Assembly (NCBI GenBank): GCA_030616425.1 | Contig: JAUWXJ010000002.1 | Location: 1 to 38,991, forward strand | Source of the DNA: Desulfobacterales bacterium | GTDB taxonomy: Bacteria > Desulfobacterota > Desulfobacteria > Desulfobacterales > C00003060 | Reading direction: 5' to 3' | Length of the DNA: 38,991 nt | Shown: in pieces, positions 899 through 30,360 of the stretch | Numbering within the stretch: position 1 is the first letter of the stretch | Layout: each line of letters starts with the position of its first letter | Notes under the pieces: generated by a model | Database searches by the model: none | Seen by the model: only the letters and a program-made list of their open reading frames with translations | What the model was told of the DNA's origin: nothing | Position numbers and translations under genes: made by a program

Positions 899-935
899 GT
901 TTTATCTTTCAGTTCTTTATTGCGACTTCTTGTTC

Positions 936-993: not shown

Positions 994-1017
994 AAAAACA
1001 TTTATCTTCCTTACCGG

Positions 1018-1051: not shown

Positions 1052-1058
1052 ACATCTG

Positions 1059-1190: not shown

Positions 1191-1230
1191 GATGCATCTC
1201 CGCCTTCAGGTGTCAGTTAATGGTTATATG

Positions 1231-1902: not shown

Positions 1903-1953
1903 ATTTTAATTAATCCCTTTATCCCTGAACCCCTCGATTCCTGAATCCTTGTC

Positions 1954-3235: not shown

Positions 3236-3334
3236 CTTAAATTTCTATCATTGCATGGTATATCTTGTCAATATTTCACTAAGGCGCTGAGTGAAGCTCA
3301 AATATTGCTAAGGTATAGCGAATTCGAAATATCA

Positions 3335-3365
3335 TTGACACTTGGCTCATACGATATGTTATACT
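3335..3365 (+). promoter_or_regulatory. Candidate sigma70-type promoter for the plus-strand envelope cluster
   Basis: TTGACA at 3335-3340 and an extended -10 TGtTATACT at 3357-3365. It sits in the 215-bp AT-rich divergent region between ccmA and the 3451 gene. Recognised by eye only. Confidence 0.35.
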
Positions 3366-3450
3366 ATATACGTATATTTTTATGCTTATGTAGCACAACA
3401 TGTTGTGGGCGTCACGTCTCGACGCATAACCGAAACAAATCTGCGACAGT

Positions 3451-5373
3451 ATGACCGAAAAACTCAAATCCAGAAAATGGCAATATCCAACCATCATAGG
3501 TATTGTCGCCTTATTATTGATGATTTTCGATGTTTCCTTACAACCCGGACAGATGCATTTACTCTACGCCCGGGAAGCCGTGGATAGCTCGGATCGATTC
3601 TCTTCTGATGTCAGTGCCGCCAACTTCGTACCCTCAAAAATCACTTGTCTTCAGATTATCCAAGAGGATTATGAAGGTTTACGGCTATCTTACCCATCTA
3701 AGGTATTCGTTGATTTTGTAAAGAACGAAATCTATGTCAACGATTCTGGAAACAACACTATATTGGTCTATACCCACGACTTCTATCCGCTTCTTTCTAT
3801 AAGCAAATCGGACGGCGTTGAAGTACCTGTGGGGGTAGCAGTTGATCCCAAAGGATACGTATTTATTACCCAGGCACCTACGAAACAGAAAAAGGGAAGG
3901 ATTTCTGTCTTGGATCCTTGTTTAAAATGGAAAAAGGATATTTTTTTTCAGGGATTTGAAGGCGCTGATGATTTTCAACCAACCAATATTGCAATTAACG
4001 ACAAAGGTCATTTCTATGTAACTGCCAGTTCCTATACTGGGGTGGTGGTTTTGGATAAGGACGGAACATTTTCCCATCTGTTGACACCAACCGACAGCCT
4101 CGGAAAAGCGCCGGTCCAAAAGGCTAAAATACACGACGTGGAGATAGACAGCCAGGGCAACATATACCTTTTGAGTGAAGATATGGGCCGTATTTATGTG
4201 TATGATTCCCAGGAGCGCTTTCTGTTTAAGTTTGGGGAAAAGGGGGGCAGTACCGGGAAACTGAGCCGACCCCGGGGTGTGGCGGTGGACAGTCGCAACA
4301 AACGGATCTACGTGATCGACTATATGCGCCATACAGCAAGTGCTTATTCAACCGACGGACGCTTTTTGTTCGAGTTCGGCGGTAAGGGATGGGGAAGGGG
4401 CTGGTTCCAGTATCCTACCGACATAGCCGTAGACGCCCTGGGTAACGTCCTGGTCGCAGACACGTTCAACAATAGAGTGCAGGTTCTTTCAATACAAGGA
4501 GGTCCACCCGTTACTGTTGCAAAGGTTGAAGAGGCCAAACCCGAAGCTCCTGTTACAGAACACTTGGTTGAAGAAGCCAAACTCAAGGTTCCTGTCAAAG
4601 AACGATTAGTTGCAGAGGCTAAACCGAGCCCCCCTGTCAAAGAAGAAACTATCAAAGAAGAAATAGTTGAAGAGGTTAAGCCCAAGGCTCCTGTCAAAAA
4701 AGAATTAGCAGAGCCAAAACCTGCAAAGTATTATGTCCTGACGGCAAACATGAACCTGCGTGAAAAAAGCACCACCAAGAGCAGGATCATTCAGTTGCTG
4801 AAAAAGGGCGAAGAGTTTCATATCCTGGATCAATATAAACATGATGACTTCAATTCTTGGTTTCTCGTAAAAACCAGATCCGGGCTCACAGGCTGGTTCT
4901 GTGGAATCTATAGCGGAAAAGACATGTTCGTGGAAAAGGAACGAAAACGGATTCCAGCCGTTGCAAAGGCTGAAAAGGCTGAGCCCAAAGTGCCCGTCAA
5001 AAAAAAATTGGTTGAAGAGGTTAAACCCAAAGCTCTTGTGATTAAAAAATTGATTAAGCCAAAACCTGCAAAGTATTATGTCTTGACGGCAGACATGCAA
5101 GATGTGGCAACACTGAAGCTCAAAGTGCTCAGTGGAGACGGCGATTTGAACTCTGCCAAGCGGATGGCAAAAAAGCTTGGAAATATGGGTTATAAGATAA
5201 AATTGGTCGATCGCGCTCCGCGATCCAACTTTTTGCGAAATACAGTCTACTTTGCATCAGGATTTCAGGACGAAGCAAAACGTCTTGTGTCCAGTCTGGG
5301 CAATAATACGATTCTGAAACCTTTAACCTGGTCTTCAAAATTTGATATTATTGTTGTAACAGGCAAGAAATGA
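3451..5373 (+). CDS. Membrane-anchored NHL-repeat beta-propeller protein with Pro/Lys/Glu-rich linkers, an SH3b domain and a C-terminal LytR_C-like domain
   Basis: N-terminal TM segment IIGIVALLLMIFDV. Repeated NHL-type blades are present (YVNDSGNNTILVY, GVAVDPKGYVFIT, IYVIDYMRHTASAY, VLVADTFNNRVQVL). An SH3b-like segment reads YYVLTANMNLREKSTTKSRIIQLLKKGEEFHILD...WFLVKTRSGLTGWF. The terminal LKVLSGDGDLNSAKRMAKKLGNMGYKIKLVDRAP...IIVVTG resembles LytR_C. Confidence 0.7.
   Translation: MTEKLKSRKWQYPTIIGIVALLLMIFDVSLQPGQMHLLYAREAVDSSDRFSSDVSAANFVPSKITCLQIIQEDYEGLRLSYPSKVFVDFVKNEIYVNDSGNNTILVYTHDFYPLLSISKSDGVEVPVGVAVDPKGYVFITQAPTKQKKGRISVLDPCLKWKKDIFFQGFEGADDFQPTNIAINDKGHFYVTASSYTGVVVLDKDGTFSHLLTPTDSLGKAPVQKAKIHDVEIDSQGNIYLLSEDMGRIYVYDSQERFLFKFGEKGGSTGKLSRPRGVAVDSRNKRIYVIDYMRHTASAYSTDGRFLFEFGGKGWGRGWFQYPTDIAVDALGNVLVADTFNNRVQVLSIQGGPPVTVAKVEEAKPEAPVTEHLVEEAKLKVPVKERLVAEAKPSPPVKEETIKEEIVEEVKPKAPVKKELAEPKPAKYYVLTANMNLREKSTTKSRIIQLLKKGEEFHILDQYKHDDFNSWFLVKTRSGLTGWFCGIYSGKDMFVEKERKRIPAVAKAEKAEPKVPVKKKLVEEVKPKALVIKKLIKPKPAKYYVLTADMQDVATLKLKVLSGDGDLNSAKRMAKKLGNMGYKIKLVDRAPRSNFLRNTVYFASGFQDEAKRLVSSLGNNTILKPLTWSSKFDIIVVTGKK
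4666..4752 (+). repeat. Intragenic 87-bp direct repeat, copy 1 (linker plus KPKPAKYYVLTA module start)
   Basis: Aligns without gaps to 5011-5097 at roughly 84 percent identity by eye. It includes an identical 32-nt run, gccaaaacctgcaaagtattatgtc. Confidence 0.85.
5011..5097 (+). repeat. Intragenic 87-bp direct repeat, copy 2
   Basis: See 4666-4752. This copy encodes VEEVKPKALVIKKLIKPKPAKYYVLTADM, against VEEVKPKAPVKKELAEPKPAKYYVLTANM in copy 1. Confidence 0.85.
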
Positions 5374-5495
5374 GGTGGGGCTTTCCGCTTCACAAGCGAT
5401 CTGCACATATCATAAACAGGCAGATCCATCTAGGTTCCCTGCAATCTTGAACGGACAAACCAATTTTATAGAAAAGAAACACAAATAGAGGAGTC

Positions 5496-6899
5496 ATGAA
5501 AAAAATAATCTATCGTTTGATAATAGTTGTATTTGCTGGAATCTGGGCCCTGTCATGTACTTTCAAGCAACCCTCCAAACGCCCTCGATCAACCAACCAG
5601 GGTCAGGTCTTTTTCTATCTTTCCTGCCCCAAGAAACCTACGTTTGATATCTCTTTTTCTCTTTCCGGCATGAGCTTCATGAACAAGGACGGCGAGTGGA
5701 TCGACGTGGCGTTGGATAAACGCATTCGTTCTGCGGAAATTGCGGAAAGGCAGGTCAAATTGCTGGAGTTTTATATGCCTGCTGGAAGGTATAAACGGAT
5801 CAAGTGGACTATTTCAGAAGCAACGGTAAAAAAGGACAAGAAAAGCTTTACCTTGGCCTTGCCCCAGCCCAAGGGTGAGCACCTTATGGATATCGAGTTT
5901 TCTGTGTTAGGCCGGGAAAGCCTGTGTCTATTTGGAGACTGGGATCCAGAGGAATCTATATTCGACAAATATCTCTTTAGGCCTAAGCTAAATATTCGGA
6001 AACAGGGTGCAGAAATCACAAACACTTTAGTCTATGTAACAAACACCGACTCTGACTGCGTTACGTTGATAGACAGGCAACGCGATGCGGTAGTAGCCAC
6101 CATAGCAGTGGGCAGAGCGCCTATTGGAATTGTGGCAACCACGGATGGACATAAGCTCTATGTGGCCAATTCCGGCTCAGACACCATTTCAGTCATCGAT
6201 ACTGCCACGAACAGGGTAACCTATACGATCAGGAACTTCGGTTACAGCCCTGCCGAGCTTGCCCTCTCCTCAGATGACGAAACCCTTTATGCAACCAACC
6301 CCGATTCAGACAATGTATCTGTTATAGACACTGTTTCCCGCACGGTAACCAGCAGAATATCTGTCGGCAAGCGCCCTTGCTGCATACTCATCGATCATGA
6401 CAGGCGCAAGGTCTATGTAACAAACACGGAGTCGCATACCATATCCGTTATTGATATCTCCACGCAATCTGTGGAAGATACGATCACGGTTGGTCTGAAT
6501 CCTACTGGTATGCTTATCCACGAGGACGACCTGTACGTGGCTAATTCGGGCTCAAACAGTATCTACATATTGGACCTTCCTTCTCACACAACAACAAAGA
6601 CGATATCTGTTGGACAAAAGCCTACCTGGCTCCTCTCCGGTCTGCGAGAACGTGTCTATGTGTCTAATACAAATAGCAACCAGATTTCTTTTGTGTACCC
6701 GGATATGGATTTGGTGACCAGGAACGTGTCTGTAGGCGCCCTCCCTTCAAAGATGGCCATGGACGAATTGAGAAGAAAACTCTATGTCGTAAATTCGATG
6801 TCAGAGGACGTGTCTGTTATAGACCTGCCAACATACAATGTGAAAAGGGTGATTCAGGTGGGAAGAACCCCTCACGGCATTGCCCTGATTGAGGAATGA
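5496..6899 (+). CDS. Probable lipoprotein with a DUF4382-like N-terminal domain and a YVTN-family beta-propeller
   Basis: Signal peptide ending in ...IWALSC. There are about eight 40-residue repeats of the YVTN type (LVYVTNTDSDCVTLID, LYVANSGSDTISVID, LYATNPDSDNVSVID, VYVTNTESHTISVID, LYVANSGSNSIYILD, VYVSNTNSNQISFV, LYVVNSMSEDVSVID). Confidence 0.75.
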   Translation: MKKIIYRLIIVVFAGIWALSCTFKQPSKRPRSTNQGQVFFYLSCPKKPTFDISFSLSGMSFMNKDGEWIDVALDKRIRSAEIAERQVKLLEFYMPAGRYKRIKWTISEATVKKDKKSFTLALPQPKGEHLMDIEFSVLGRESLCLFGDWDPEESIFDKYLFRPKLNIRKQGAEITNTLVYVTNTDSDCVTLIDRQRDAVVATIAVGRAPIGIVATTDGHKLYVANSGSDTISVIDTATNRVTYTIRNFGYSPAELALSSDDETLYATNPDSDNVSVIDTVSRTVTSRISVGKRPCCILIDHDRRKVYVTNTESHTISVIDISTQSVEDTITVGLNPTGMLIHEDDLYVANSGSNSIYILDLPSHTTTKTISVGQKPTWLLSGLRERVYVSNTNSNQISFVYPDMDLVTRNVSVGALPSKMAMDELRRKLYVVNSMSEDVSVIDLPTYNVKRVIQVGRTPHGIALIEE

Positions 6900-6943
6900 T
6901 TCCGAAACCACCTTTTTGTGTGAAAGATGCCAACTGAAGTTAT

Positions 6944-9070
6944 ATGAAGCGCTGGACTGCTGTTTTTCTACTGATCTTGGTCTGGTTCCGGGGGGTCTAT
7001 GCCGGAGATGATATACATGGTTCGGCCAGCCTTTCTTATCGCTCCACCGAAACAAAGACTGCCCAAGAAAAAAAGAGCAGCTGGAGCTTCAACCAAACAT
7101 ATAACATAGGCCTTACCAAGGAGTTTACGCCTAAAGTAAATTTCACTGCCAACCTTGGCGTCAATGTCACAGAAACAGATGATACAAAGACCACGCGGCT
7201 CTATCCGGATATGAGGCTGAATCTGTCAAATGAATATTTTAGGGCCGATACCGGGTATCAGTTGATCGAAAGGGGCCTTGACATCTTGACCATGGTCTCA
7301 GACGAGGAGCGGTTCACCACTGAATCCTGGAATACCAATTTTTCCACAAAACTCGAAAAATATCCGAAGCTCCGACTCCGTTACAACCAAGACAAATCTT
7401 ATGACCACCTGTCGGTTCACAAGACAAATACCCAAACAAACAGGTTTTCCGGAAGCGCTGATTATGCCTTCCGTTTCTTGAATCTTTACTATGACTATAC
7501 CAATAACATTTCAGAGGATTATGTTGCAGACAGTACCCAGGAGACTAATACCCATGACGGGAGAGTAAATTTCAGAAAGTCTTTTTGGAGGAACAAGGTA
7601 ACATCGTCCGGAAGCTATTCGCTAAGGGAGAGCAAGACGGAGACAACAACAAGGGGACAGGATGTCGAGGTTGCCGAACAAAAGAGCCCCACTGCAGGAT
7701 TGTATTCTGGCGACCCTCCTAATGTTTTGATCATAGAGCTTGACCCTGAAGCCGAGCTCATAGATGGCGACAAGGCCAATAGTACGGATTCGGACATAAA
7801 CATCGGTGTTGACACCAACCAGAACATCGGGCTGGAGCTCACGTTTTCCGCAGAGATTAATAAGATATATCTTTATACGACCACGCCAATTGACGGTTTT
7901 AACGAGGACGCCTTCACCTGGGCCGTGTATAGTAGCAGTGACAACATTACCTGGGCATCGATAACCTCTTCGGAAGATTATAACGCGAACCAGGAGAGGT
8001 TTGAGTTCTCTGTTACCGAAACGGCCCGCTATTTTAAGGTGGTAAACACGGCAAACGACAATCACGCCCTCGAGGTAACAGAGATCGAGGCTTACGGCAC
8101 TACCACCCAGACATCTTATACCTCAAGCGAGACGGTGAGCACCACGGAAACCGTCAATGCCAATCTTGGTTTTCGGCCCTTTACGTGGCTCTCCTTTACA
8201 TATGACGTCAAGCAAGACATGCAGAAGGACGACGAGAGTGGGGCCGACGCAACTAAAACCAGGCGGTCGACCCAGAATATAAGCGGTCTTCTTGGAAAAG
8301 GATTTCAGGTTCACAAGTATCTGATGGTCCGGCCCCAGTATCAAAAGTGGTTGGAATTTAAAGATGAACCTGATGCAGAGACAAGGAGTTCGACCGATAC
8401 GTACAGGGTACATTTTCTTTCATCCCCGTTAAAAACGCTTGATACCGACCTTTCCCTGAACCACAGCGTATCAAAAGATGAGGATGTAACACAATCAAGG
8501 AACTCATCCGCTCTGCTGCATATAGCGGCCAAACTCCGTGAAGGGGCGGATCTGGACATAGACGCCAACATGTCCCGGACTGAGAATCTTTCAAGTGAAA
8601 CCGTGTCAACAACCAGAACTCTTGATTCAAACCTCCGCCTTAAGCTTACCAGCGCGTTGACAACTGAGATAGAGTATAATAAAACCTGGACCGAAACTCA
8701 AAATATCGCCCCAGGCCCGAGCGAGGGTACCAGCGGGCGTAATTCCTCTGCTAAGGCCACCATTTACTGGCGGCCCTCACACGATTTCTATTTCAGAGGA
8801 TCATACAGCGTTGACCGGGACGAAGAGGCAGGGGATGAAACCTCTCAGCAGGACTATGACCTGAACTGGTTGATTACCGAGAAGATACAGCTCAGTATGG
8901 GCTATGACATAGACAGGAATGATACGGTCCAGACAACCTATTCCTCTGACCTTTCGTGGGGCCTGAGCCGGACGTTCACGCTCAGGTTCGGATTTAACTG
9001 GACTCGGAAAGAGGCCGATACGGAAACAGAAACGCAAGTCGCAACCGTAGATCTCTCAGCACGGTTTTAG
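6944..9070 (+). CDS. Predicted outer-membrane beta-barrel protein with an inserted F5/8-type-C (discoidin)-like domain
   Basis: Signal peptide ending VYAGDD. Long runs of alternating hydrophobic/polar residues rich in T/S/N/Y are typical of OM barrels, and the C-terminus ends ...VDLSARF. Residues ~255-385 (nt 7706-8098) read ...LIDGDKANST...FTWAVYSSSDNITWASI...ARYFKVVNTANDNHALEVTEIEAYG, which is a discoidin-like signature. Confidence 0.6.
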   Translation: MKRWTAVFLLILVWFRGVYAGDDIHGSASLSYRSTETKTAQEKKSSWSFNQTYNIGLTKEFTPKVNFTANLGVNVTETDDTKTTRLYPDMRLNLSNEYFRADTGYQLIERGLDILTMVSDEERFTTESWNTNFSTKLEKYPKLRLRYNQDKSYDHLSVHKTNTQTNRFSGSADYAFRFLNLYYDYTNNISEDYVADSTQETNTHDGRVNFRKSFWRNKVTSSGSYSLRESKTETTTRGQDVEVAEQKSPTAGLYSGDPPNVLIIELDPEAELIDGDKANSTDSDINIGVDTNQNIGLELTFSAEINKIYLYTTTPIDGFNEDAFTWAVYSSSDNITWASITSSEDYNANQERFEFSVTETARYFKVVNTANDNHALEVTEIEAYGTTTQTSYTSSETVSTTETVNANLGFRPFTWLSFTYDVKQDMQKDDESGADATKTRRSTQNISGLLGKGFQVHKYLMVRPQYQKWLEFKDEPDAETRSSTDTYRVHFLSSPLKTLDTDLSLNHSVSKDEDVTQSRNSSALLHIAAKLREGADLDIDANMSRTENLSSETVSTTRTLDSNLRLKLTSALTTEIEYNKTWTETQNIAPGPSEGTSGRNSSAKATIYWRPSHDFYFRGSYSVDRDEEAGDETSQQDYDLNWLITEKIQLSMGYDIDRNDTVQTTYSSDLSWGLSRTFTLRFGFNWTRKEADTETETQVATVDLSARF

Positions 9071-9083
9071 AGGTACAAAAACA

Positions 9084-9653
9084 ATGAAAAATTCCAAGTA
9101 TCTATTTCTTGCCCTGTTGTTCGTCGTCTTCTTTTCAGGATGCAGTGTCCCCATAAGTTATATCCATCCCACAGCAGACCTTACATATATCAAGACAGTC
9201 GCTATTGTACCTTTTCAAAATCTTACTCAGCAAAAAGGGGCGGAAGGCAAGGTAATGAATGTCGTGGCCTCAGAGGTGTTAAGGCGGGGTGTGTTTGATG
9301 TTGTTGAATTCGGAGAGGTCACCAAGGTGCTGAAGGAGGAAGGTTTAAAAAGCGACGGCTCAATCAGCAAACGTGTGGCAGAAAGAGCGGCAAAGCGCTT
9401 GAATGTTGAGGCTTTCATAGTAGGCGCGGTTGAAGAGTACGGTGTCTCGCAAATAGGCGAAAGCTCATATCCAGAAGTCTCGGTCTCCTTAAAGTTGTTA
9501 GATGCAAAATCTTATAAGATCCTATGGGAAACGACGCACAGCGTAAAAGGGACAACGGTCCTAGATCGGCTCTTTGGTATCAGCAAGAAAAGCACGAGCG
9601 ATCTTGCAAAAGAGCTTGTTGCCGAGATGTTTGATACGTTGTTTGGGGGATAG
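9084..9653 (+). CDS. Lipoprotein, DUF799/GNA1162-like (TolB-N/LpoB-like fold), paralog 1
   Basis: Lipobox FFSGC. The pattern VAIVPFQNLT...VLRRGVFDVVE...VEAFIVGAVEEYG...LKLLDAKSYKILWE is shared with the two following genes. Confidence 0.55.
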   Translation: MKNSKYLFLALLFVVFFSGCSVPISYIHPTADLTYIKTVAIVPFQNLTQQKGAEGKVMNVVASEVLRRGVFDVVEFGEVTKVLKEEGLKSDGSISKRVAERAAKRLNVEAFIVGAVEEYGVSQIGESSYPEVSVSLKLLDAKSYKILWETTHSVKGTTVLDRLFGISKKSTSDLAKELVAEMFDTLFGG

Positions 9654-9661
9654 TATCAATC

Positions 9662-9686
9662 AATAAGCTGGATATCTTATTTTTTC
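9662..9686 (+). terminator. Weak AT-rich hairpin plus T-run after the 9084 gene
   Basis: AATAAG-ctggatat-CTTATT followed by TTTTT. The stem is only 6 bp and AT-rich. Confidence 0.2.
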
Positions 9687-9811
9687 TAAGTACATGTTTT
9701 CATAGGCAAAAGCAGGAAAATACGTGATCGAATTTATGAGTTAGAGCACTAAGTCCCTAAGTCTGGGCCCACCATTTTTGAAAACGTATCTGGACGTAAA
9801 AGATTCATTTA

Positions 9812-11335
9812 TTGAAAAAAGATACACTCATCATTGTTGTATTGATCCTTTTTGTTTGTCTACCGATTCATAGCTATGGGAAAAAGGAGTGGCCTATCAA
9901 GAAAAATAATGTTGCGGTCATGCCCTTTGGAGCCTTCACCATTGGTTCCCTCTCCTTTGATTTTACTCATCTGGTCAGAGATCGCCTGATGGATGACAAA
10001 TTCAGCCTTATTTCTCAGGACACGTTGGAAGCATTCCTTGTGGAAAAAAGAGTCCGGAGGACAGATTTCTTAGACCGGGCAACTATCAGGGAGATGGGTA
10101 TGGCCTTGAACGCAGATGCCTTGATAATCGGTTCTGTGGATGTCCTTGCTGGTGGTGAAAATCCCCGGATCGCCATGAGCGCCCAGATGATAGACTGTGT
10201 AGAGTCCTCTGTTGTATGGGCTAACTCCATTTCGTATACCGGGGAAGACTTTGCCGGCTTTCTTGGCATAGGTAAGATAAATTCCCTTCAAAGGCTGGCA
10301 GAAATAGCAGTAAGAGATCTTCTTAAGGGCTTACCCACTGAGGTCCGTGTAGATGATGGGCTGGCAAGGCCATTTGAAATTGTACAAGCGAGCTTCTTCC
10401 CCAAGGTGCTGAAAGGTGGCCAGACAACCAACGTGTCAATTGAGGTAAGGGAGATTACAGGAAAGCCCAAGGATATTAAGGCCTTTGTCCTTGACACCGA
10501 GGTCGTCCTTAAAACAGAGGCCGGAGAATGGTATGCTGGAACGTTAACTGCCCCGACCATTGAAGGGGTATACCCCTTGAGAGTTTATGTAACAAACCAG
10601 GATAATACGCTTTTCAGCATGGATGATTTGGCTGAACTGACAGTCGACAACACCCCGCCCGAGTTTTTCGTTTCATTCCGCCAAAGGCTTATATCGCCTA
10701 ATAACGATGGTAAAATGGACGACATAATGTTCTTCCCCGAAATCCTGAAGGCAGATACCATAAGAAACTGGAGGGTTGAGATTACTGATGAAGCCGGAAC
10801 GGTTATGAGATCAGAAGAGAGTATTGGGAGCTTGCCAGGGGGGTTTATCTGGCGGGGTGAGAACAATAAGTATAAGCGGGTTAAAGATGGAACTTATTTT
10901 TGCCGGTTGATGTTGGAAGACAAGGCTGGTAACAGGTCGGTTTCACCAAAAGAGGCTATAGTAGTCGACTCAACACCGCCTGAAGTGGATGTGGTCCTTG
11001 CTGCTGAAGATGATGAAGGGATAACCATAGAGGTAAAAACCAAAGATATTGACAAAATGGGGGGCTGGGAGTTAATCATATATGATAGAAAAGGGAATGA
11101 GGCAGGCAAGTTTGAGGGCAAAGGGGATATACCAACGACACTAAACTGTACATTGAAGCAGAATCAGGAAGGCCCAAGCCTGGAAAAAGAGGGCTTCTTG
11201 GCCTATTCACTTGAAATTAGCGACATTGCGGGAAACAGGTTAGAAAGAGAAAAAGAACCTCTGAAGCCACCCCGACCAGAGGAACCTGAGAGAGAACCGT
11301 CTGAGAAAAAAGAAGTATGGGTGGAGGATTTTTGA
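9812..11335 (+). CDS. Exported protein: N-terminal DUF799/LpoB-like module (paralog 2) fused to FlgD-Ig-like beta-sandwich domains and an acidic Pro/Glu tail
   Basis: TTG start as called by the ORF track, followed by a signal peptide. The N-terminal module reads VAVMPFGAF...ADALIIGSVDVL...MIDCVESSVVWAN. The Ig-like segment reads VDNTPPEF...ISPNNDGKMDDIMFFPE...WRVEITDEAGTVMRS...WRGENNKYKRVKDGTYFCRLMLEDKAGNRS...VDSTPPEV. Confidence 0.6.
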   Translation: MKKDTLIIVVLILFVCLPIHSYGKKEWPIKKNNVAVMPFGAFTIGSLSFDFTHLVRDRLMDDKFSLISQDTLEAFLVEKRVRRTDFLDRATIREMGMALNADALIIGSVDVLAGGENPRIAMSAQMIDCVESSVVWANSISYTGEDFAGFLGIGKINSLQRLAEIAVRDLLKGLPTEVRVDDGLARPFEIVQASFFPKVLKGGQTTNVSIEVREITGKPKDIKAFVLDTEVVLKTEAGEWYAGTLTAPTIEGVYPLRVYVTNQDNTLFSMDDLAELTVDNTPPEFFVSFRQRLISPNNDGKMDDIMFFPEILKADTIRNWRVEITDEAGTVMRSEESIGSLPGGFIWRGENNKYKRVKDGTYFCRLMLEDKAGNRSVSPKEAIVVDSTPPEVDVVLAAEDDEGITIEVKTKDIDKMGGWELIIYDRKGNEAGKFEGKGDIPTTLNCTLKQNQEGPSLEKEGFLAYSLEISDIAGNRLEREKEPLKPPRPEEPEREPSEKKEVWVEDF

Positions 11336-11344
11336 CATGAGGCT

Positions 11345-11929
11345 TTGATTCTTATGCAAGGCCGGCTTTTTTTTCTATTGATCAGCCTGTTCTTAGTTGT
11401 CTGTCCCGGATGTTATTCTCGTCCAGGCCCAAATAGTTACCTGAGACCTGGTACCGACCAGTCAAAGATCGACAAGGTTGCGGTCTTTCCGTTCCACAAC
11501 AACACTCAAGTGTCTGAGGCCAGCAGTATTGTGACCAAGGCCTTTATCACAGAGCTGTTTGAAAGGAAAAAGCTTAAGGTCGAATTTCCGGGTAATATAA
11601 GAAGCTTCCTTGTCAGTAAGCGAATTATTGTAAGGACAGGCGTCGATCTTGAAACCATAAAAGTAATGGCCAAAAGACTGGGAGTCGACGCCGTTATCTT
11701 AGGGGAGGTAGATGAATACATAGGTGTGGATGACAGAAAAAAAGCTGTCATTCCTGTTGTTTCTATCAGGTCCAGGATGGTGGACGGCCGGAGCGGCAAG
11801 ATCCTGTGGATGGCGCAACACAGGAGAATAGGTAATGATTATATAAAAGTTCTCGATTTTGGAAAGGTAAGGTCGGTAGCCGCATTGACTCGAAGGGTTG
11901 TCAAGGAAATGATCCAGACCATGCCGTGA
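11345..11929 (+). CDS. Lipoprotein, DUF799/GNA1162-like, paralog 3
   Basis: TTG start and a Cys-containing signal end, LVVCPGC. The pattern VAVFPFHNNT...VDAVILGEVDEY...MVDGRSGKILWMAQH parallels 9084-9653. Confidence 0.55.
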   Translation: MILMQGRLFFLLISLFLVVCPGCYSRPGPNSYLRPGTDQSKIDKVAVFPFHNNTQVSEASSIVTKAFITELFERKKLKVEFPGNIRSFLVSKRIIVRTGVDLETIKVMAKRLGVDAVILGEVDEYIGVDDRKKAVIPVVSIRSRMVDGRSGKILWMAQHRRIGNDYIKVLDFGKVRSVAALTRRVVKEMIQTMP

Positions 11930-12001
11930 GGGTGGCATTCGTTATTTGATATTTGATAATGGTCAATATCAATCGTCAATCATCAATCGATAAGTATCAT
12001 T

Positions 12002-13450
12002 ATGAGAAAACTGTCAGTATTCGCCTTTATACCTCTTCTGTGGTTTGTGGCCGCAGATAATAAGGCCCTTTATTGTGCTTCCGAGCATACAGCGGTCCTT
12101 GCTGAAGTAAAAGGTGAGATTATAGATGAAAGGGGGCTTCAGGACAGAATCGATACCATCCACAAGTTTAAGCCGCTGATCAAACCTGATGGGGGGGTGG
12201 GCGGTATCAATATCTTAGACCTTCTTGAACAGATGATCAACGAGCGCCTTATGATCCAGGAAGCTTACAGGGTCGAACTGGACAAGGATCCTGATTTTGA
12301 AAAAAGGCTTCAATCCTCCATAAGAAACCAATCTGTTACCAGATTGAGAAAAGAAGAGGTGCTTGACAAGATCAATATAAGCGAGGAAGACCTGCTTGGC
12401 TACTTCAAAAAACATTATAAAAAAGACGGGCCTGTATCAGATGAAGAGTTTCAGAAAAAGAAAAGGCGAATCCGCAAGAAGCTAAAAAGGGAAAGAGAGA
12501 AAGAGCTGTCTGACAACTTTGTTGCGATGTTAAGAAAGGAATCAGATATCTGGATCGACAGGGAGCTGCTTAATTCACTTGACACTGAAAAGGATTATAC
12601 TGCGAAAAACCCAATAATAGCACGCGTCAATGGCGAACCAATCCCCCTGAATGACATGCTGCACGATATGAGACAGGCATTTCAAAAAAGGGGCAGGATG
12701 TACAGCAGGTTAAAAGATAATAGCGAGCAAGAGAGGCTGCGTGAAGAGTTAAAGCAACAGACGCTGGATGCCCTGATCACCTACAAGTTGATCGAGCAGG
12801 AGGCATTAAGGCGTAATTACCTTAGAGACCCGGCCTTCATGGAAATTATTAGAAAGCGAAAAGAGCGTTTGCTCATTGATCAATTTAAGGAAAAAATAGT
12901 CTATCCCCTTGCTATTCCAACAAAAAAAGAGTTGACAAAGTACTATGAAGAACATATAGACAACTTCAGAAAAGGTTATCAGGTTTGGTTTAGCGAGATG
13001 ACCTTTCGAGCCCGGGAGGATGCTGAAAAGGCCCTGAAGGAATTAAAGCAAGGGGCAAACTTTGAATACTTGGCTACCCATGTGTCAGAAAGGTGGACAC
13101 CGAAGCAAGCGCGCGTATGGGTCAATACTGATAGGTTTCCTCTTGGGATCAGAAAAGAGCTGAATCGGCTGGAGGTCGGACAAACAAGCGATGTCCTCGC
13201 TGATGGCAGACAATACAAGATCATAAAATTAAAGGGGAAAAGAGGGGGGGCGCCCGAGGAATTTTCCCGTGTGGCTCGGAGCTTGAAGAAAATAGTTGCA
13301 CAGCAAAAATTCAACACCGCGCTTTCCGATTACTTGGCCAAATTGCGCAAAGAATCCAACATCAAGATCGATAAAAAAGCCCTGAACAGGATAGAAGAAA
13401 AGTACAAGGCTGGGCCTGCTGAAGAAACTGAAACCACGTCTACAGAATAA
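12002..13450 (+). CDS. SurA/PpiD-like periplasmic chaperone with a degenerate parvulin (PPIC-type) domain
   Basis: Signal peptide, then a SurA_N-like helical N-terminus (LLEQMINERLMIQEA). A central charged coiled region follows. A parvulin-like block reads YQVWFSEMTFRAREDAEKALKELKQGANFEYLA...GQTSDVLADGRQYKIIKL. The usual HxSHIL His residues are not evident. Confidence 0.5.
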   Translation: MRKLSVFAFIPLLWFVAADNKALYCASEHTAVLAEVKGEIIDERGLQDRIDTIHKFKPLIKPDGGVGGINILDLLEQMINERLMIQEAYRVELDKDPDFEKRLQSSIRNQSVTRLRKEEVLDKINISEEDLLGYFKKHYKKDGPVSDEEFQKKKRRIRKKLKREREKELSDNFVAMLRKESDIWIDRELLNSLDTEKDYTAKNPIIARVNGEPIPLNDMLHDMRQAFQKRGRMYSRLKDNSEQERLREELKQQTLDALITYKLIEQEALRRNYLRDPAFMEIIRKRKERLLIDQFKEKIVYPLAIPTKKELTKYYEEHIDNFRKGYQVWFSEMTFRAREDAEKALKELKQGANFEYLATHVSERWTPKQARVWVNTDRFPLGIRKELNRLEVGQTSDVLADGRQYKIIKLKGKRGGAPEEFSRVARSLKKIVAQQKFNTALSDYLAKLRKESNIKIDKKALNRIEEKYKAGPAEETETTSTE

Positions 13451-13453
13451 TAT

Positions 13454-15403
13454 ATGAAACTAACAAAGGCAGCATCATATTCATTGTTACTCCTGGGAAT
13501 AATCCTTATCGCTTCCACTTCTTGTGAGAAAAGGGTCCCCGGGTTTGTCAAAAAGAAGTGTGTTGACTGTCACCAAAAAGAGGCCAAGCAATTTAAAGCG
13601 GCAAAGGTAGTGCATTCTCCTGTTTCCAAGGATGAGTGTGATGCCTGCCACAGGCCTCACGGGGTCATAGGCGGCGTTTATTTGAAGACCAGCCCACAGC
13701 AGCTTTGCTTTACCTGTCATACGGATAGCAAAGCCATGCTTGACAAAAAACATGTCCACACGCCGGTAAGTGAGAAAAAATGTGTCGGCTGCCACAATCC
13801 CCACTCCTCCATGAACAAAGACCTATTAATAGGGAAGGGAAATGAGTTCTGTTTTATCTGCCATAAGCAAGGTCCTTATACCAGAGAGACAACTCATGTT
13901 CCTCTATCTAAAAAGGGATGTTTGGTTTGTCATGATGCCCATGCCTCTGACTATGAGCAATACCTGTTTGACACAAAAAACAATGTGTGCGCAAAATGCC
14001 ATGACTTCAAAAAATCTGGGTTTATCACACGGCACACAGGCTATAACGTAGAACAGAGCAGCTGTGTCTCTTGCCATACATCACATTCATCTTCCAACCC
14101 CAAATTGCTGCGCGAATTCATTCATGCGCCCCTTGACAAGAACCAGTGCGCCGCCTGCCACCACCCTGCGGAATCTGCGGAAGCCTTGCAGCCCAAAGTA
14201 GAAGGGGCTGAACTCTGCTACGGGTGCCACAGGGAAAACGAGATCGCTTTCACAAAGGCCCACATCCATGATCCGGTCAACGAAGGCGATTGTCTGTCGT
14301 GCCACAGCCCCCATGCCACGGGCAACAAATATGTAACCATTCTTCCTGATGGGAAGCTTTGCTACTCGTGCCATGAAGAGACAGAGGAGTTGTCTAAGAA
14401 GCAGCATGTGCACAAGCCGATAACGGAGAACAACTGTACCGCCTGCCATAATCCCCATGCATCAAGCAACGAATATGAATTGAAAGACCTTGGCAAAACG
14501 TTATGCTTCCGATGTCACACAAAAGATGGTTTTACCCATTCAAATATTCACGAGCCTATTAAGAAAGGAAACTGTATCGTCTGCCACGACCCGCATGCAT
14601 CGGATAACAAATTTGAGCTTAAGTTGGTTGAGATCCAGCAGTGTTACACTTGTCACCAGAAAGAACAAATGCTCTTTGACCGGGTAAACGTCCACACGCC
14701 CATAAGGATTGGCAGGTGTGTCGCTTGCCACAACCCCCACTCAATTGACAGGGAAAAACTCTTGGTTCAGGCAAGGGAGAAGCTCTGCTTTAACTGCCAT
14801 CAGGGCATGCTAGATGAGGTGAAGGGGGGAACCATCCATCCCTCTTTTGAAAAAGGAGAGTGCCTGAGATGCCATAACGAACATGCCAGTGACCATGATT
14901 TTCAACTGATCGAAACAAGAGGAGAGAATTGTTACCGGTGTCATGCCAGGATTCAAGCCTCTTCTAACACGAGTAAATACAACCATGCCCCGCTCAAACA
15001 GGGAGAATGCACAGCCTGTCATAATCCCCACGGGAGCAAGATAAAGGGGCAATTGTACCGACCCGTGGGAAGCCTGTGCCTGTCATGTCATACAGATCTG
15101 GGCACACACATTAAAAAAGACAAACACAAGCACAGCCCCGCAAAGAAAGGGGACTGTCTGAAGTGCCATGCTCCCCACTATGCAAACATTGAAGGCCTGC
15201 TTGCAGCTCAGGGGGCCAGTCTATGCAAGGGTTGTCATGATCTGGAGGCTTCAGCCCTTGTAACTTCCCACAGTAGGATCGCGATAACGGGCTCTGATTG
15301 TATCGGCTGTCATGAATCACATACTTCGGAAAACAAAAGACTGTTGCACAAGGTTTTGCATCGCCCGTTTGAGGAGGGCCACTGCACAGCATGTCATGAG
15401 TAG
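13454..15403 (+). CDS. Multiheme c-type cytochrome with 26 CXXCH motifs (13 tandem di-heme modules)
   Basis: I count 26 CXXCH motifs in 649 aa. A regular unit recurs: LCxxCH, about 12 aa, H-x-P, about 5 aa, CxxCHxPH[AS]S. This is the doubled-CXXCH / c7-polymer style. The protein has an N-terminal signal with ...ASTSC. Its start lies 3 nt after the stop of the chaperone gene. Confidence 0.9.
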   Translation: MKLTKAASYSLLLLGIILIASTSCEKRVPGFVKKKCVDCHQKEAKQFKAAKVVHSPVSKDECDACHRPHGVIGGVYLKTSPQQLCFTCHTDSKAMLDKKHVHTPVSEKKCVGCHNPHSSMNKDLLIGKGNEFCFICHKQGPYTRETTHVPLSKKGCLVCHDAHASDYEQYLFDTKNNVCAKCHDFKKSGFITRHTGYNVEQSSCVSCHTSHSSSNPKLLREFIHAPLDKNQCAACHHPAESAEALQPKVEGAELCYGCHRENEIAFTKAHIHDPVNEGDCLSCHSPHATGNKYVTILPDGKLCYSCHEETEELSKKQHVHKPITENNCTACHNPHASSNEYELKDLGKTLCFRCHTKDGFTHSNIHEPIKKGNCIVCHDPHASDNKFELKLVEIQQCYTCHQKEQMLFDRVNVHTPIRIGRCVACHNPHSIDREKLLVQAREKLCFNCHQGMLDEVKGGTIHPSFEKGECLRCHNEHASDHDFQLIETRGENCYRCHARIQASSNTSKYNHAPLKQGECTACHNPHGSKIKGQLYRPVGSLCLSCHTDLGTHIKKDKHKHSPAKKGDCLKCHAPHYANIEGLLAAQGASLCKGCHDLEASALVTSHSRIAITGSDCIGCHESHTSENKRLLHKVLHRPFEEGHCTACHE

Positions 15404-15486
15404 GTGAGCCATTACTCAAGGGTTATATATTTTTAGTGAACTTATAAATTCAAATATCTGAAGAAACCGATTCTGTAGGAATAAAG

Positions 15487-16743
15487 ATGGTCGTGGTTCA
15501 AAGAAACATATACCGGGCTTTTCTTCTATTTGCCTGCGCCTTCACAGGTTTCATATCGGTGACAAACTCGGCCTATGCCAAGGGTACGCAGGTCAGTGCA
15601 GAGAAATGTCTAAAATGCCACCCTGATCTGCGCCAGGAAATGGCATCCAGGGGTGCCCATGCGCCTTTTAAGAGACTTGAATGTTCAAGTTGCCATAATC
15701 CTCACACCTCAAATTACGAACACCTGGTCAAAGAGCAGATCAGCAAACTGTGCAAGAACTGTCACAAGGGCAAGAAGGGGGTTTTTGGCAAAAAGTACGG
15801 CCACTCCCCATTTGAGGAAGGGGCGTGCCTGAAGTGCCACAGGCCTCATTCTTCCAAGAACCGAAAACTGTTGCTCGCTGCAGGGGGAAAACTCTGCTTT
15901 ACCTGCCATGCCAAGAAAGAAATCCTTTCAAAGAAATACAAGCACGACCCGGTGAAGAAAGGCAAGTGCCTAACCTGCCACAGTCCCCACACGTCTGACC
16001 ATGAAAGGATGCTGAAAAGGGGTCTTTCACAAGCGTGCGTCTCGTGCCATTCAATTAAGAGTAAGGCAGCCAAAGCGTCGCACAGTCATTACCCGGTGCA
16101 GGACTCGAAATGCACATCCTGCCATAACCCCCATGCATCAAGCCACAGCAATTTGATCAAGGAAAGTTCTCATAAGCCATTTGCCGAGAGGAAATGTACT
16201 CAATGTCATAATTCTGTCCGGTCACGTGATCCCTTGGGTGTGAAAGGTGAAGGCATGTCAGTCTGTGTTGCTTGCCACCCGTCAACCAAGGAGGATTTCA
16301 GGAAGGTCAATACCCACGTAGGGCAAGGTGTTTTTTGCATAAACTGCCATAGCCCGCATGCCTCAGATGAAGCCCACATGAAAAAGGCAAAAGAGACAAG
16401 AATATGCACAAGCTGTCATCGGGATACAAAAGAGCATTTAAGAGACAAGAAGAATAAGTACAAGCACCCGTCGGTTATGGAAGGAAAGTGCAGCGAGTGT
16501 CATCGTCCCCATGGGTCTAACTTCAGGCTACTTTATCCCACTGATGAAATCGGCGCCTGCGCTGAATGCCACAAAAGACACGTCTCGTTCACCCATCCCA
16601 TAGGAAAAGATGCTATTGACCCTAGGTCCAAGGGGGAGATTACGTGTGTCACATGTCACAACCTGATGGGAAGCCGTCACGATTTTGCATTGAGATTTGA
16701 TCGGAAAAAGGAATTGTGTATTCAGTGCCATAAGGGGTACTAG
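15487..16743 (+). CDS. Multiheme c-type cytochrome with 16 CXXCH motifs
   Basis: I count 16 CXXCH motifs in 418 aa, with the same paired-module pattern (CSSCHNPHTS, CLKCHRPHSS, CLTCHSPHTS ...). The signal peptide ends SAYAKG. Confidence 0.9.
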   Translation: MVVVQRNIYRAFLLFACAFTGFISVTNSAYAKGTQVSAEKCLKCHPDLRQEMASRGAHAPFKRLECSSCHNPHTSNYEHLVKEQISKLCKNCHKGKKGVFGKKYGHSPFEEGACLKCHRPHSSKNRKLLLAAGGKLCFTCHAKKEILSKKYKHDPVKKGKCLTCHSPHTSDHERMLKRGLSQACVSCHSIKSKAAKASHSHYPVQDSKCTSCHNPHASSHSNLIKESSHKPFAERKCTQCHNSVRSRDPLGVKGEGMSVCVACHPSTKEDFRKVNTHVGQGVFCINCHSPHASDEAHMKKAKETRICTSCHRDTKEHLRDKKNKYKHPSVMEGKCSECHRPHGSNFRLLYPTDEIGACAECHKRHVSFTHPIGKDAIDPRSKGEITCVTCHNLMGSRHDFALRFDRKKELCIQCHKGY

Positions 16744-16767
16744 TTTGTCATTGGCATACCCATGTCG

Positions 16768-16912
16768 TCAAATGGTTGCGGTTACGCGGCTCGTTTAGCG
16801 CAAGCTTCACTTCGTGTCGGTGCTCGGTTTACGTCAAACGGCTTTAAAAGACGACTGAACCGATAGACGATAGCCGTAACGAGCAGCGCAACCGATAAAC
16901 GATAGCCGTTCT
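16768..16912. repeat. Structured intergenic repeat, family member A. It also contains an 18-bp direct repeat and long-range inverted complementarity.
   Basis: The core tcGTTTAGCGCaAGCTTCACTtCGTG at 16791-16816 matches 18087-18112 and, with an insertion, 30246-30296. ccgatagacgatagccgt (16860-16877) and ccgataaacgatagccgt (16892-16909) form a direct repeat. ggttgcg...gctcgtt (16774-16795) is partly complementary to ccgtaacgagcagcgcaacc (16874-16893). Confidence 0.6.
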
Positions 16913-16998
16913 TTCATAAACCTCAATTTGTGGCCGTGTTAAGTATATAAATACAAGATATGAGTGCGCAGAAAAATGACAGGTATATAGGGAGTATT

Positions 16999-17898
16999 AT
17001 GTCTAGAAAGATCAATTTCGTTATCCTGTTTTTGACCTTCTTCCTGATCATACCGGCAACCGCACTTTGCGCGGGAAAAGGGATTAAGCACCTTACATCG
17101 ATTACCAGAGACACGGAAACAGGCCGTTTGGGCCTGCTAGGCGGTGTCTTTTTTGATGAAAACAGGAATAGATTATATGTGACCGATACCACAAACAAAC
17201 GGATCCTCGCCTTTGATGTTGACATGAAGTTTGTGTCTGAATTCAATGCGGGCGGAGCCTTAGAGGCTCCAACCTTTCTGGTAAGAAACAGCAAAGGTCA
17301 GTTTTTTGTTGCTGAGCCAACAAAAGGTAACATTCTGTTTATTGATATTAGACAAAAGTCTGTTAAGCCAATCGATTTTTCAGGCGTTCCCAAGGCCAAC
17401 ATCATTTATCCCGGCAAGATGACCTTGGATTCGTCAGATAATCTATATATCGTTGATAAAGCCAACCAGAGGATTCTTATTTTTGATCCAGATCTACGGT
17501 TCGACAGGCAAGTCCTTGTCAAAGACGGCAAAGGCCTAAGCGATGTAAAGGTTGACTCAAGTGGTAATATTTATGCGTTAAATACAATAGGCGGATCTAT
17601 TAGCGTTTTTGACAGCCGGGGAAATCTCCTCCAAACATTTGGAAAAAAGGGCAAAGAAAAACAGGAATTCGATTTCCCCGTGAGCCTCGCCATACACCCA
17701 AAAGGGGTGATCTATGTGGTCGATCAACACAAGCATAAGGTCTTGGCCTTCAACAAAAAAGGCGAATTTCTGCTATACTTCTCAGAGTTAGGCTGGAGAG
17801 AAGGGCGCCTCCACTATCCCTCCTTTATCTGTGTAAACAAGGCTGGTAGGATCTTCATCGTCGACAGAGGGAACAGCCGCATCAGCGTTTTTGAATAA
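16999..17898 (+). CDS. Secreted NHL-repeat beta-propeller protein
   Basis: The ORF opens at 16960. The ATG at 16999 has an AGGGAG RBS and yields signal peptide MSRKINFVILFLTFFLIIPATALCAG. Six NHL-type blades are present (LYVTDTTNKRILAFD, FFVAEPTKGNILFID, LYIVDKANQRILIFD, IYALNTIGGSISVFD, IYVVDQHKHKVLAFN, IFIVDRGNSRISVFE). Confidence 0.8.
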   Translation: MSRKINFVILFLTFFLIIPATALCAGKGIKHLTSITRDTETGRLGLLGGVFFDENRNRLYVTDTTNKRILAFDVDMKFVSEFNAGGALEAPTFLVRNSKGQFFVAEPTKGNILFIDIRQKSVKPIDFSGVPKANIIYPGKMTLDSSDNLYIVDKANQRILIFDPDLRFDRQVLVKDGKGLSDVKVDSSGNIYALNTIGGSISVFDSRGNLLQTFGKKGKEKQEFDFPVSLAIHPKGVIYVVDQHKHKVLAFNKKGEFLLYFSELGWREGRLHYPSFICVNKAGRIFIVDRGNSRISVFE

Positions 17899-17965
17899 GA
17901 TCGGCTGATCTGTTCTGCCTCCTTTCCGTTGTGCAAACTGCTCGCAAGGCCATGCCATAGGCACA

Positions 17966-18188
17966 AGACCTTTGCATAACTCCTTTGATCGGCCTTTATG
18001 AACTTTTTGGGGCACCCATCCGGGCGAAGCGAACGGCCCACGCCAGTGGGCAAATTCCAAACTGTTTGAGGCGGCCCTTGGGCCGAGTTTAGCGCAGAGC
18101 TTCACTACGTGCTGGGATTTAGTGAGCAAGTCCGTGGATGGGTCAAAAAGTTCATACGAAAGGTAAAAAGGGGGTTATGCAAAGGTCT
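17966..18188. repeat. Element bounded by inverted repeats in the convergent intergenic region. It contains intergenic repeat family member B (about 18058-18178).
   Basis: agacctttgcataac (17966-17980) is the exact reverse complement of gttatgcaaaggtct (18174-18188). The interior aactgtttgaggcgg...ccGAGTTTAGCGCagAGCTTCACTACGTGCTgggaTTTAGtGAGc...tcaaaaag...cgaaagg...aaaggggg aligns with 30223-30358. Confidence 0.6.
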
Positions 18189-18205
18189 CGGCGCATCGTG
18201 GGCAC

Positions 18206-19908: not shown

Positions 19909-20030
19909 TGGGGTCAGTAGTCACTAGTCATTGGTCAATAACGGAGTCTAAGGTGTGATAATCCACCATATGGGGCAAGGAAAATCGCTGAACATAGGCA
20001 TCCAGCCATTTCCACACACACTAATTGTCA

Positions 20031-30358: not shown

Positions 30359-30360
30359 TA

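Follow-up and report, generated by a model that had tools for sequence, protein, structure and literature searches.

Which cell-envelope system is encoded by ten consecutive genes that bring together large multiheme cytochromes, beta-propellers, an outer-membrane barrel and small lipoproteins, and has such a system been described before? The genes, numbered 1 to 10 here, occupy positions 3451–17898 on the plus strand of a 38,991-nucleotide stretch of DNA from a Desulfobacterales bacterium (GenBank assembly GCA_030616425.1, contig JAUWXJ010000002.1), which was analysed at its full length and is called the window below. An earlier note, made from the sequence alone, had proposed them as an undescribed cell-surface redox or extracellular electron-transfer system. 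Our analysis showed that the finding is real, strongly conserved and already described, with a function that we infer. The cluster almost certainly belongs to the published Oet module of methane-seep sulfate-reducing bacteria (SRB), and very probably equals the osc block, the companion of omcS in Geobacter. On sequence grounds, the ten genes are one conserved envelope module, the one published as the SEEP-SRB 'cytochrome operon' and OetABI cluster; by gene order it is also the osc block, to which two propeller genes are added upstream, beside the ccm operon.

The open reading frame (ORF) list and translations placed all ten plus-strand envelope genes where the earlier note had put them. The intergenic gaps are 122, 44, 13, 158, 9, 72, 3 and 83 bp, as reported there, and the last gap is 216 bp rather than about 250 bp. 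All ten products are predicted from their sequences to be exported, in agreement with the note. To call lipoboxes and signal peptides, we compared ortholog N-termini from about 25 loci in alignments. The lipobox cysteine was conserved in genes 2, 4, 6 and 8, and ordinary signal peptides were found in genes 3, 7 and 9. Pfam and NCBIfam searches recovered the domains that had been proposed, namely NHL with SH3_3 and LytR_C, YVTN/YncE, GNA1162/LpoB-like, CHU_C/Big/FlgD_ig, SurA_N with Rotamase_2, Paired_CXXCH and a second NHL. Paralogy within the cluster was assessed by BLAST among the window proteins.

Comparison with published clusters overturned the claim of novelty, because the layout agrees gene for gene with the OetABI or 'DIET cluster' of Murali et al. 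2023 (PMC10553843). That study described OetABI as a conduit of methane-seep syntrophic SRB, with OetA as a periplasmic cytochrome, OetB as a lipoprotein cytochrome and OetI as the porin. Its S5 Table gives the order ccmF-A, NHL, b-propeller, omb, four genes, hmlB and hmlA. The window has in common with it the ccm genes, the NHL/SH3 protein, the beta-propeller, omb (OetI), a DUF799 lipoprotein, a CHU_C-type protein, a hypothetical protein, a peptidyl-prolyl isomerase (PPIase), hmlB and hmlA. Accordingly, gene 1 is the equivalent of the NHL repeat/SH3 domain-containing protein, gene 2 of the b-propeller, gene 3 of omb/OetI, gene 8 of hmlB/OetB (26 hemes, lipoprotein) and gene 9 of hmlA/OetA (16 hemes). 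Gene 3 was 66% identical over its full length to RLB82945.1 and 68% identical to NVL90216.1, both listed as 'omb' in the S5 Table (B60-G16 and JABXJX01 proteins). Both are placed in the OetI tree of the same study, where they are labelled Seep-SRB1c-type and which also holds the barrel of Geoalkalibacter subterraneus and G. sulfurreducens WP_010943136.1. The order OetB then OetA was also recovered, with gene 8 (26 CXXCH motifs, lipobox) and gene 9 (16 CXXCH motifs, signal peptidase I-type signal) following the PPIase gene as in the S5 Table. The window differs from the Oet clusters in lacking the upstream omcX/extA/omcS-like genes and the extra cytochrome ('omc') and HAMP protein that are inserted in many versions. 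Its nearest published relatives are of the Seep-SRB1c type, a group not known as a partner of anaerobic methanotrophic archaea (ANME).

Four of these genes were met earlier in the SEEP-SRB1 'cytochrome operon' of Skennerton et al. 2017 (PMC5539420), whose core genes, for a PPIase, two cytochromes of 26 and 16 hemes and a six-bladed propeller, correspond to window genes 7–10. The operon proteins were seen in situ by metaproteomics in that study, the porin was not recognised, and homologs were reported in Geobacter, Anaeromyxobacter and Desulfuromonas. The main text of Murali et al. 2023 (PMC10553843) leaves the propellers and the PPIase unmentioned and uses 'lipoprotein' only for OetB, and its supplements do not contain the term discoidin. 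The role in extracellular electron transfer that the earlier note suggested is consistent with the cytochrome and barrel genes predicted here and is also the published reading.

To place the cluster among its relatives, we compared three contigs encoding barrel homologs and 24 loci from species-representative genomes. Genes 2–10 were collinear in every related locus with enough flank, at barrel identities from 77% down to 25%. The carriers of the block extended from Desulfobacterales to Desulfuromonadales and included metagenome-assembled genomes (MAGs) binned as Nitrospirota and Spirochaetota. The position of gene 7 was identical in all loci, gene 10 ended the block in all loci with enough flank, and gene 1 orthologs, present in closer relatives, held the same position in most loci. 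The divergent ccm neighbour was also found in five loci (L005, L006, L010, L014 and L023). Because the genes are collinear in more than 24 loci, the ten occur together far beyond chance. The proposal that they act as one conserved envelope unit is therefore favoured by this collinearity down to 25% barrel identity and by the predicted export of all products. In the Geoalkalibacter subterraneus locus (L032), the order was NHL, small cytochrome, barrel, LpoB/CsgG-like protein, 496-aa protein, 199-aa protein, PPIase, 655-aa cytochrome, 393-aa cytochrome and NHL. This locus and that of a Desulfuromonadales MAG (L031) matched window genes 1 and 3–10 one for one, including the discoidin-like segment of the barrel.

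The relatives differ in an insertion of about 2 kb, which is optional: it was observed in L003, L005, L011, L013, L014, L017, L024 and L027–L029, and was missing from the window and its closest relatives. It usually lies between the orthologs of genes 5 and 6, and between genes 6 and 7 in L011. The genes carried on it in L003 and L005 are those for an additional cytochrome (about 390–410 aa) and for a smaller product of about 190 aa that matched HAMP weakly. These insertion genes are the 'omc' and 'methyl accepting chemotaxis protein' entries of the S5 Table (Murali et al. 2023, PMC10553843). A further locus from Anaeromyxobacter paludicola (L030, AP025592.1) encodes a PPIase, an NHL propeller and a paired-CXXCH cytochrome of 719 aa, with 799- and 575-aa proteins lacking a family match at the positions expected for the barrel and the PelC-like proteins. 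It keeps only the cytochrome, PPIase and NHL genes, amid other neighbours, and was not treated as a complete ortholog. Evidently the core genes can pair with different outer-membrane parts.

Gene 3 (6944–9070, plus strand) encodes a 708-aa outer-membrane beta-barrel. Its AlphaFold2 (AF2) model had a predicted local distance difference test score (pLDDT) of 88.2 and a predicted template modelling score (pTM) of 0.59. DSSP analysis of the model gave 11 long strands, a beta-sandwich at residues 256–394 and 17 more strands, about 28 in total. In a Foldseek search against the PDB, the top template modelling score (TM-score) was obtained with MtrB (6r2q_B, 0.40/0.43); TonB-dependent receptors came first by E-value with TM-scores of only 0.2–0.27. 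About 110 close homologs were found, nearly all from Desulfobacterales or "Deltaproteobacteria" MAGs. A library-wide hidden Markov model search enlarged the family to 1467 representative clusters (728 at E ≤ 1e-30), one of them from the cultured Geoalkalibacter subterraneus, and a third homolog search with the divergent barrel alignment as query returned nothing new.

The beta-sandwich is a discoidin (F5/8 type C)-like insert between barrel strands 11 and 12 (7709–8125, plus strand). The earlier note had called a discoidin domain in the barrel. Gene 3 itself fell short of the Pfam cut-off (26.7 against 28.2 bits; E 6.6e-6 for the isolated segment), but F5_F8_type_C was detected in 21 of 59 homologs, with a best E-value of 1.8e-10. 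The residues W326, Y329, W337, R362-Y363 and T379-E380 were kept in Desulfuromonadales barrels of 25% identity, and a PDB sequence search with the discoidin segment gave no significant match. In the model, the insert would sit in the extracellular loop after strand 11, because both barrel termini are taken to be periplasmic, as in known outer-membrane proteins.

The two cytochromes are encoded by gene 8 (13454–15403, plus strand, 649 aa), a 26-heme lipoprotein with 13 paired-CXXCH units, and gene 9 (15487–16743, plus strand, 418 aa), a 16-heme soluble periplasmic protein with a signal peptidase I-type signal peptide and no lipobox. The CXXCH counts given in the earlier note, 26 and 16, were exact. 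Paired_CXXCH_1 matched gene 8 at E 7.7e-136 and gene 9 at E 2e-80, and the DmsE-family model matched them as repeated segments with 304 and 179 bits, respectively. The two proteins were 33% identical to each other (E 9e-64). The sole PDB sequence match of gene 8 was chain A of the Mtr complex entry 6r2q (E 2.3e-17), which we take to be MtrA, though the entry names it otherwise. The cytochromes were the best-conserved genes of the block, at 40–47% identity where the barrel had 25–32%.

The homolog search with gene 8 was dominated by other phyla, through cytochromes of about 1050 aa, and was useful just for finding loci L030 and L031. Its top-scoring matches (P0120–P0172) were paired-CXXCH cytochromes of about 1050–1090 aa from MAGs labelled Zixiibacteriota, Latescibacterota, Krumholzibacteria and FCB group. 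Because these matches come from such other phyla, very long paired-CXXCH heme wires are widespread outside Desulfobacterota.

Genes 4–6 form a PelC-like trio. Gene 4 (9084–9653, plus strand, 189 aa) encodes a PelC/GNA1162-like outer-membrane lipoprotein with a conserved lipobox. Its sequence matched PDB PelC (9h80) at E 2.8e-4, and its family profile matched 5t11 at E 1.5e-5. The AF2 model of gene 4, built from an alignment with its two in-window paralogs only, had a pLDDT of 79. Foldseek gave PelC structures as its best matches (5t0z, 5t11 and 5t10, comprising G. metallireducens PelC and the PelC dodecamer), with TM-scores on the target of 0.77–0.83; GNA1162, LpoB, CsgG and TolB-N ranked under PelC. 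Gene 6 (11345–11929, plus strand, 194 aa) encodes a second PelC/GNA1162-like lipoprotein with a conserved lipobox, 32% identical to gene 4 (E 2e-21), and its family profile matched PelC 5t11 at E 8e-5. Gene 5 (9812–11335, plus strand, 507 aa) encodes a secreted, non-lipidated paralog with a PelC-like N-terminal domain (9899–10336), which matched gene 6 at E 2e-13, and Ig/Fn3-like domains at about 10649–11179. The C-terminal region of gene 5 matched Fn3 domains of C5a peptidase (E 3.6e-7) as well as CHU_C/FlgD_ig. The 'lipoprotein triad' of the earlier note thus stands as three paralogs and needs amending in one member: gene 5 has a signal peptide only and its orthologs have no conserved cysteine, so the triad consists of two lipoproteins and one secreted paralog. 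Gene 7 (12002–13450, plus strand, 482 aa) follows with a periplasmic SurA/PrsA-like parvulin PPIase (Rotamase_2, E 5.6e-14; SurA_N_2, E 1e-8).

Three propeller proteins complete the cluster. Gene 1 (3451–5373, plus strand, 640 aa) has an N-terminal signal or anchor, a six-blade NHL propeller (about 3628–4500), Lys/Pro/Glu-rich repeated linkers, an SH3_3 domain (4747–4896) and a LytR_C domain (5113–5367); the Pfam E-values were 3e-19 for NHL, 1.5e-8 for SH3_3 and, weakly, 8e-4 for LytR_C. Gene 2 (5496–6899, plus strand, 467 aa) encodes a lipoprotein with an uncharacterised N-terminal domain of about 150 aa and a seven-blade YVTN/YncE propeller (TIGR02276, 7 repeats, E 2.5e-69; YNCE, 3e-19). Its lipobox cysteine was present in all orthologs aligned, and the DUF4382 suggested for this protein was rejected at E 0.28. 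Gene 10 (16960–17898, plus strand, 312 aa) encodes a secreted six-blade NHL propeller (NHL, E 3.9e-25) paralogous to gene 1 (E 7e-35). Within gene 1, positions 4516–5097 contain internal DNA duplications with 80-nt and 101-nt units that are 66–82% identical; the repeated linkers that they encode are rich in Lys, Pro, Glu and Val and, together with a recurring 'KPAKYYVLTA' motif, flank the SH3 and LytR_C domains. The length of gene 1 orthologs varied widely, from 318 to 640 aa.

The earlier note had also held that the propellers and lipoproteins lack a counterpart in known conduits. Our results contradict this, as an eight-gene block recurs in Desulfuromonadales and matches Geobacter GSU2500–GSU2493 by order. 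According to papers citing Shen et al. 2025 (Cell Chem Biol 32:239), this osc block is linked to the maturation or folding and the secretion of OmcS nanowires, with OscH acting in folding, OscE/F/G in secretion and OscD in nanowire morphology. GSU2495 (oscI) is a 26-heme protein of about 70 kDa, and GSU2494 (oscJ) is the second large cytochrome. By order, gene 3 is the counterpart of GSU2500, genes 4, 5, 6 and 7 of OscE, OscF, OscG and OscH, and genes 8, 9 and 10 of GSU2495 (OscI), GSU2494 (OscJ) and GSU2493. This comparison covered order, sizes and heme counts, which fit window genes 3–10. The L031 and L032 loci are homologous to the window gene for gene, and G. sulfurreducens WP_010943136.1 stands in the OetI tree. 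Two differences were apparent. The Geobacter block follows an OmcS-like hexaheme (GSU2501), often with omcS and omcT, and none of these was found in the 39 kb window, where ccm rather than such a hexaheme lies immediately upstream. In turn, the window adds the YVTN lipoprotein and the NHL-SH3-LytR_C protein upstream of the block.

OmcE nanowire clusters provide a second counterpart, as they too combine a large barrel with propeller lipoproteins and multiheme cytochromes. In the minimal set described for Desulfuromonadia by Petersen et al. 2025 (preprint, 10.1101/2025.10.22.684050), there are two of each, multiheme cytochromes and beta-propeller lipoproteins, beside a large beta-barrel to which a role in secretion or anchoring is ascribed; a porin-mounted nanowire model is also cited there. 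The likeness to the window lies in the logic of the parts list, and OmcE clusters differ in holding the tetraheme OmcE subunit.

Two further systems resemble parts of the window. The MtrB barrel has 26 strands. The window shares with Shewanella MtrCAB (6R2Q) a large barrel and MtrA-type heme wires, as seen in the top TM-score of MtrB and the match of gene 8 to chain A. The window barrel differs in having about 28 strands and no MtrB_PioB match, and the cytochromes in carrying 26 and 16 hemes instead of 10. Genes 8 and 9 thus do not correspond to a decaheme MtrA/DmsE with a surface decaheme MtrC/OmcA, no MtrC/OmcA-type surface cytochrome is present, and the window adds the discoidin insert, the PelC-like proteins, the PPIase and the propellers. 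With PelBC (9H80; PelC 5T0Z, 5T10 and 5T11), the window shares a PelC-fold outer-membrane lipoprotein beside a barrel gene, as gene 4 shows by profile, fold (TM-scores on the target of 0.75–0.83, E-values of about 1e-10 to 4e-12) and lipobox. In Pel, a single PelC forms a 12-subunit lipoprotein ring on the PelB export barrel (PMC12141448). The window instead has three diverged paralogs, one of them non-lipidated and fused to Ig-like domains, and a barrel of about 28 strands with no TPR domain; no TPR-barrel PelB, pelDEFG or glycosyltransferase gene was found in the cluster or the window.

Taking these likenesses together, we propose with moderate confidence a mechanism that combines a port and a heme wire in one physical assembly. 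The gene 3 barrel, very wide at about 28 strands, would form an outer-membrane port, with the PelC-like products of genes 4–6 at its periplasmic mouth, possibly as a ring, and the SurA-like PPIase of gene 7 would chaperone the exported components. The gene 8 lipoprotein and the soluble gene 9 protein, both of the MtrA/DmsE paired-CXXCH type, would together make up a heme wire that runs beneath the port and through it. This wire would link periplasmic carriers to an extracellular cytochrome, possibly a filament with its subunit encoded elsewhere, or directly to a partner or mineral. The propellers (genes 1, 2 and 10) would act as scaffolds, and gene 1, through its SH3b and LytR_C domains, may fasten the assembly to the cell wall. 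The discoidin domain probably lies on the cell surface, and electrons would be expected to flow inward in a sulfate reducer.

Several observations weigh against this proposal. The mapping to osc draws on gene order, gene sizes, the bridging Desulfuromonadales loci and the published tree. The eight-gene block GSU2500–GSU2493 always accompanies a GSU2501-type hexaheme in Geobacter, according to the citing papers, and no OmcS-, OmcX- or GSU2501-like subunit gene was found in the 39 kb window, where CXXCH motifs occurred in genes 8 and 9 only. Membership of gene 3 in the MtrB_PioB family was rejected, as this Pfam family gave no match even at E-values up to 10, and the TM-score with MtrB was only about 0.4. 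The discoidin domain might plug the barrel lumen instead of lying outside (model pTM 0.59). With the OmcA/MtrC model, genes 8 and 9 scored 67 and 47 bits, under the cut-off of 209, so neither cytochrome is MtrC/OmcA-like. The Oet conduit model is itself purely bioinformatic, having been derived from genome and expression data (Murali et al. 2023, PMC10553843), and the Geobacter, Anaeromyxobacter and Desulfuromonas homologs of the cytochrome operon were reported to lack expression during metal respiration (Skennerton et al. 2017, PMC5539420).

Among the alternatives, a self-contained porin–cytochrome conduit without a filament, following the OetABI model strictly, is possible, and we give it limited credence. 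OetA would lie in the barrel, entering from the periplasm, OetB on the surface would contact the partner or mineral directly, and the other genes would only aid assembly, as modelled by Murali et al. 2023 (PMC10553843). Because the window contains no filament-subunit gene, which sets it apart from Geobacter, this reading stays alive. It also agrees with the cytochromes being the best-conserved genes, the conserved lipobox of gene 8, the relation of the cytochromes to MtrA and the top TM-score of MtrB for the barrel. However, extended versions of the cluster carry upstream omcX- or omcS-like genes, and the Geobacter block, as far as the citing papers relate, is always found with an OmcS-like hexaheme and is genetically linked to OmcS secretion. 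The surface location of gene 8 is an assumption, and a PelC-like trio with a PPIase would be unusually heavy assembly help for a simple conduit. A more elaborate version strikes us as rather unlikely: a self-sufficient 42-heme wire, with the three PelC-like paralogs as a hetero-oligomeric ring at the mouth of the 28-strand barrel and a surface discoidin domain docking onto glycans of the partner or matrix. In such a ring, the PelC-like paralogs, two lipidated and one with Ig-like domains, might have diverged anciently.

Alternatively, the cluster could be a machine that exports and assembles an extracellular cytochrome polymer, as in a strict osc reading, with the barrel and PelC-like ring as a PelBC-like port, the PPIase as a folding factor and the 16- and 26-heme proteins as accessory or cargo-related parts instead of the transmembrane wire. 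The PelC-like fold of gene 4 and its paralogs, the ring that PelC forms on an export barrel (PMC12141448), and the folding, secretion and morphology roles reported for OscH, OscE/F/G and OscD point in this direction. We nevertheless regard it as improbable, as the 42 hemes in two MtrA-like wires, kept in every locus, are hard to explain in this way, no subunit gene is present in the window, the osc roles are known only via citing papers, and the other Pel parts (TPR-barrel PelB and pelDEFG) are missing from the cluster and the window. Least of all do we credit chance or loosely co-regulated neighbours, in which the barrel, lipoproteins and propellers would serve adhesion or polysaccharide export and the cytochromes would be ordinary periplasmic carriers: the discoidin, SH3b, LytR_C and PelC-like domains are characteristic of systems for adhesion, the cell wall and polysaccharides, the 158- and 216-bp gaps could hold internal promoters, and promoter and terminator scans were uninformative, but more than 24 loci share the order, ranging from Desulfobacterales to Desulfuromonadales and to MAGs binned as Nitrospirota and Spirochaetota, at barrel identities down to 25%, and no glycosyltransferase or polymerase gene lies nearby.

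Upstream of the cluster, the divergent ccm operon for cytochrome c maturation occupies 1–3235 on the minus strand (Pfam ABC_tran, CcmB, Cytochrom_C_asm and CcmE). The earlier note had called ccmABCDEF; ccmA (2615–3235), ccmB (1954–2676), ccmC (1231–1902), ccmD (1059–1190) and ccmE (515–898) are whole, but only the 5' part of ccmF (1–518) is present before the gene leaves the window at its left end. The N-termini of ccmD and ccmF were recognised from translation. The 215-bp spacer between ccmA and gene 1 (3236–3450) is AT-rich as described, with 37% GC compared to 47% for the window. A promoter-like site on the plus strand, TTGACA...TATACT with a 19-nt spacer, lies within it at 3335–3365; it is a candidate only, because the consensus scan gave no enrichment of such sites. 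In 3000–18600, promoter and terminator counts were not above those in shuffles (24 vs 22.1 and 22 vs 16.3), so the counts do not define the transcription units of the cluster. Rfam gave no match in the whole 39 kb window.

Two repeat structures were observed near gene 10. In the 216-bp gap 5' of this gene, a 19-nt direct repeat occurs twice at 16859–16909 (ACCGATAGACGATAGCCGT and ACCGATAAACGATAGCCGT), with 13 nt between the copies and one mismatch, and could bind a regulator or serve as an internal point of control for gene 10. Just 3' of gene 10, at 17966–18188, two nested inverted repeats with 21-nt arms (90% complementarity) and 22-nt arms (82%) enclose 116–181 nt. At this end of the cluster, they could form a long hairpin or act as a terminator, or be what is left of a small mobile element.

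Elsewhere in the window, the genes of an ABC importer lie at 18206–21113 (minus strand) and include those for a permease and a binding protein of the PBP_like_2 type. The 157-aa ATPase ORF stops within ABC_tran and is followed by a 170-aa ORF with no family match, so the importer may have a split or frameshifted ATPase gene. At 30109–34143, dnaN and gyrB follow a 520-bp gap of 32% GC, with thiC upstream instead of dnaA and with yidC and jag further on. The cumulative GC skew rises from near 29–30 kb, and DnaA boxes were not enriched in the window. This region may be a replication-origin neighbourhood without an adjacent dnaA.

In the published work covered, into which Shen et al. 2025 entered through citing papers, we found no mention of the roughly 28-strand model with MtrB as top TM-score, the discoidin domain after strand 11, the PelC-like nature of genes 4–6 (two lipidated, one not) or the conserved lipobox of the 26-heme cytochrome, and no description of a PelBC-like ring reused for electron transfer.

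The window therefore adds no new kind of system. It represents a minimal version of the module, set beside ccm and lacking both the extra cytochrome insert and a neighbouring filament-subunit gene, in a lineage for which syntrophy is not known. The barrel of about 28 strands, the loop discoidin domain, the PelC-like trio and the lipidated 26-heme wire offer structural handles for the cultured carriers Geoalkalibacter and Geobacter. The module bears on two active questions, namely the export and outer-membrane mounting of cytochrome nanowires, and the way in which sulfate reducers draw electrons from methane-oxidising archaea or minerals.

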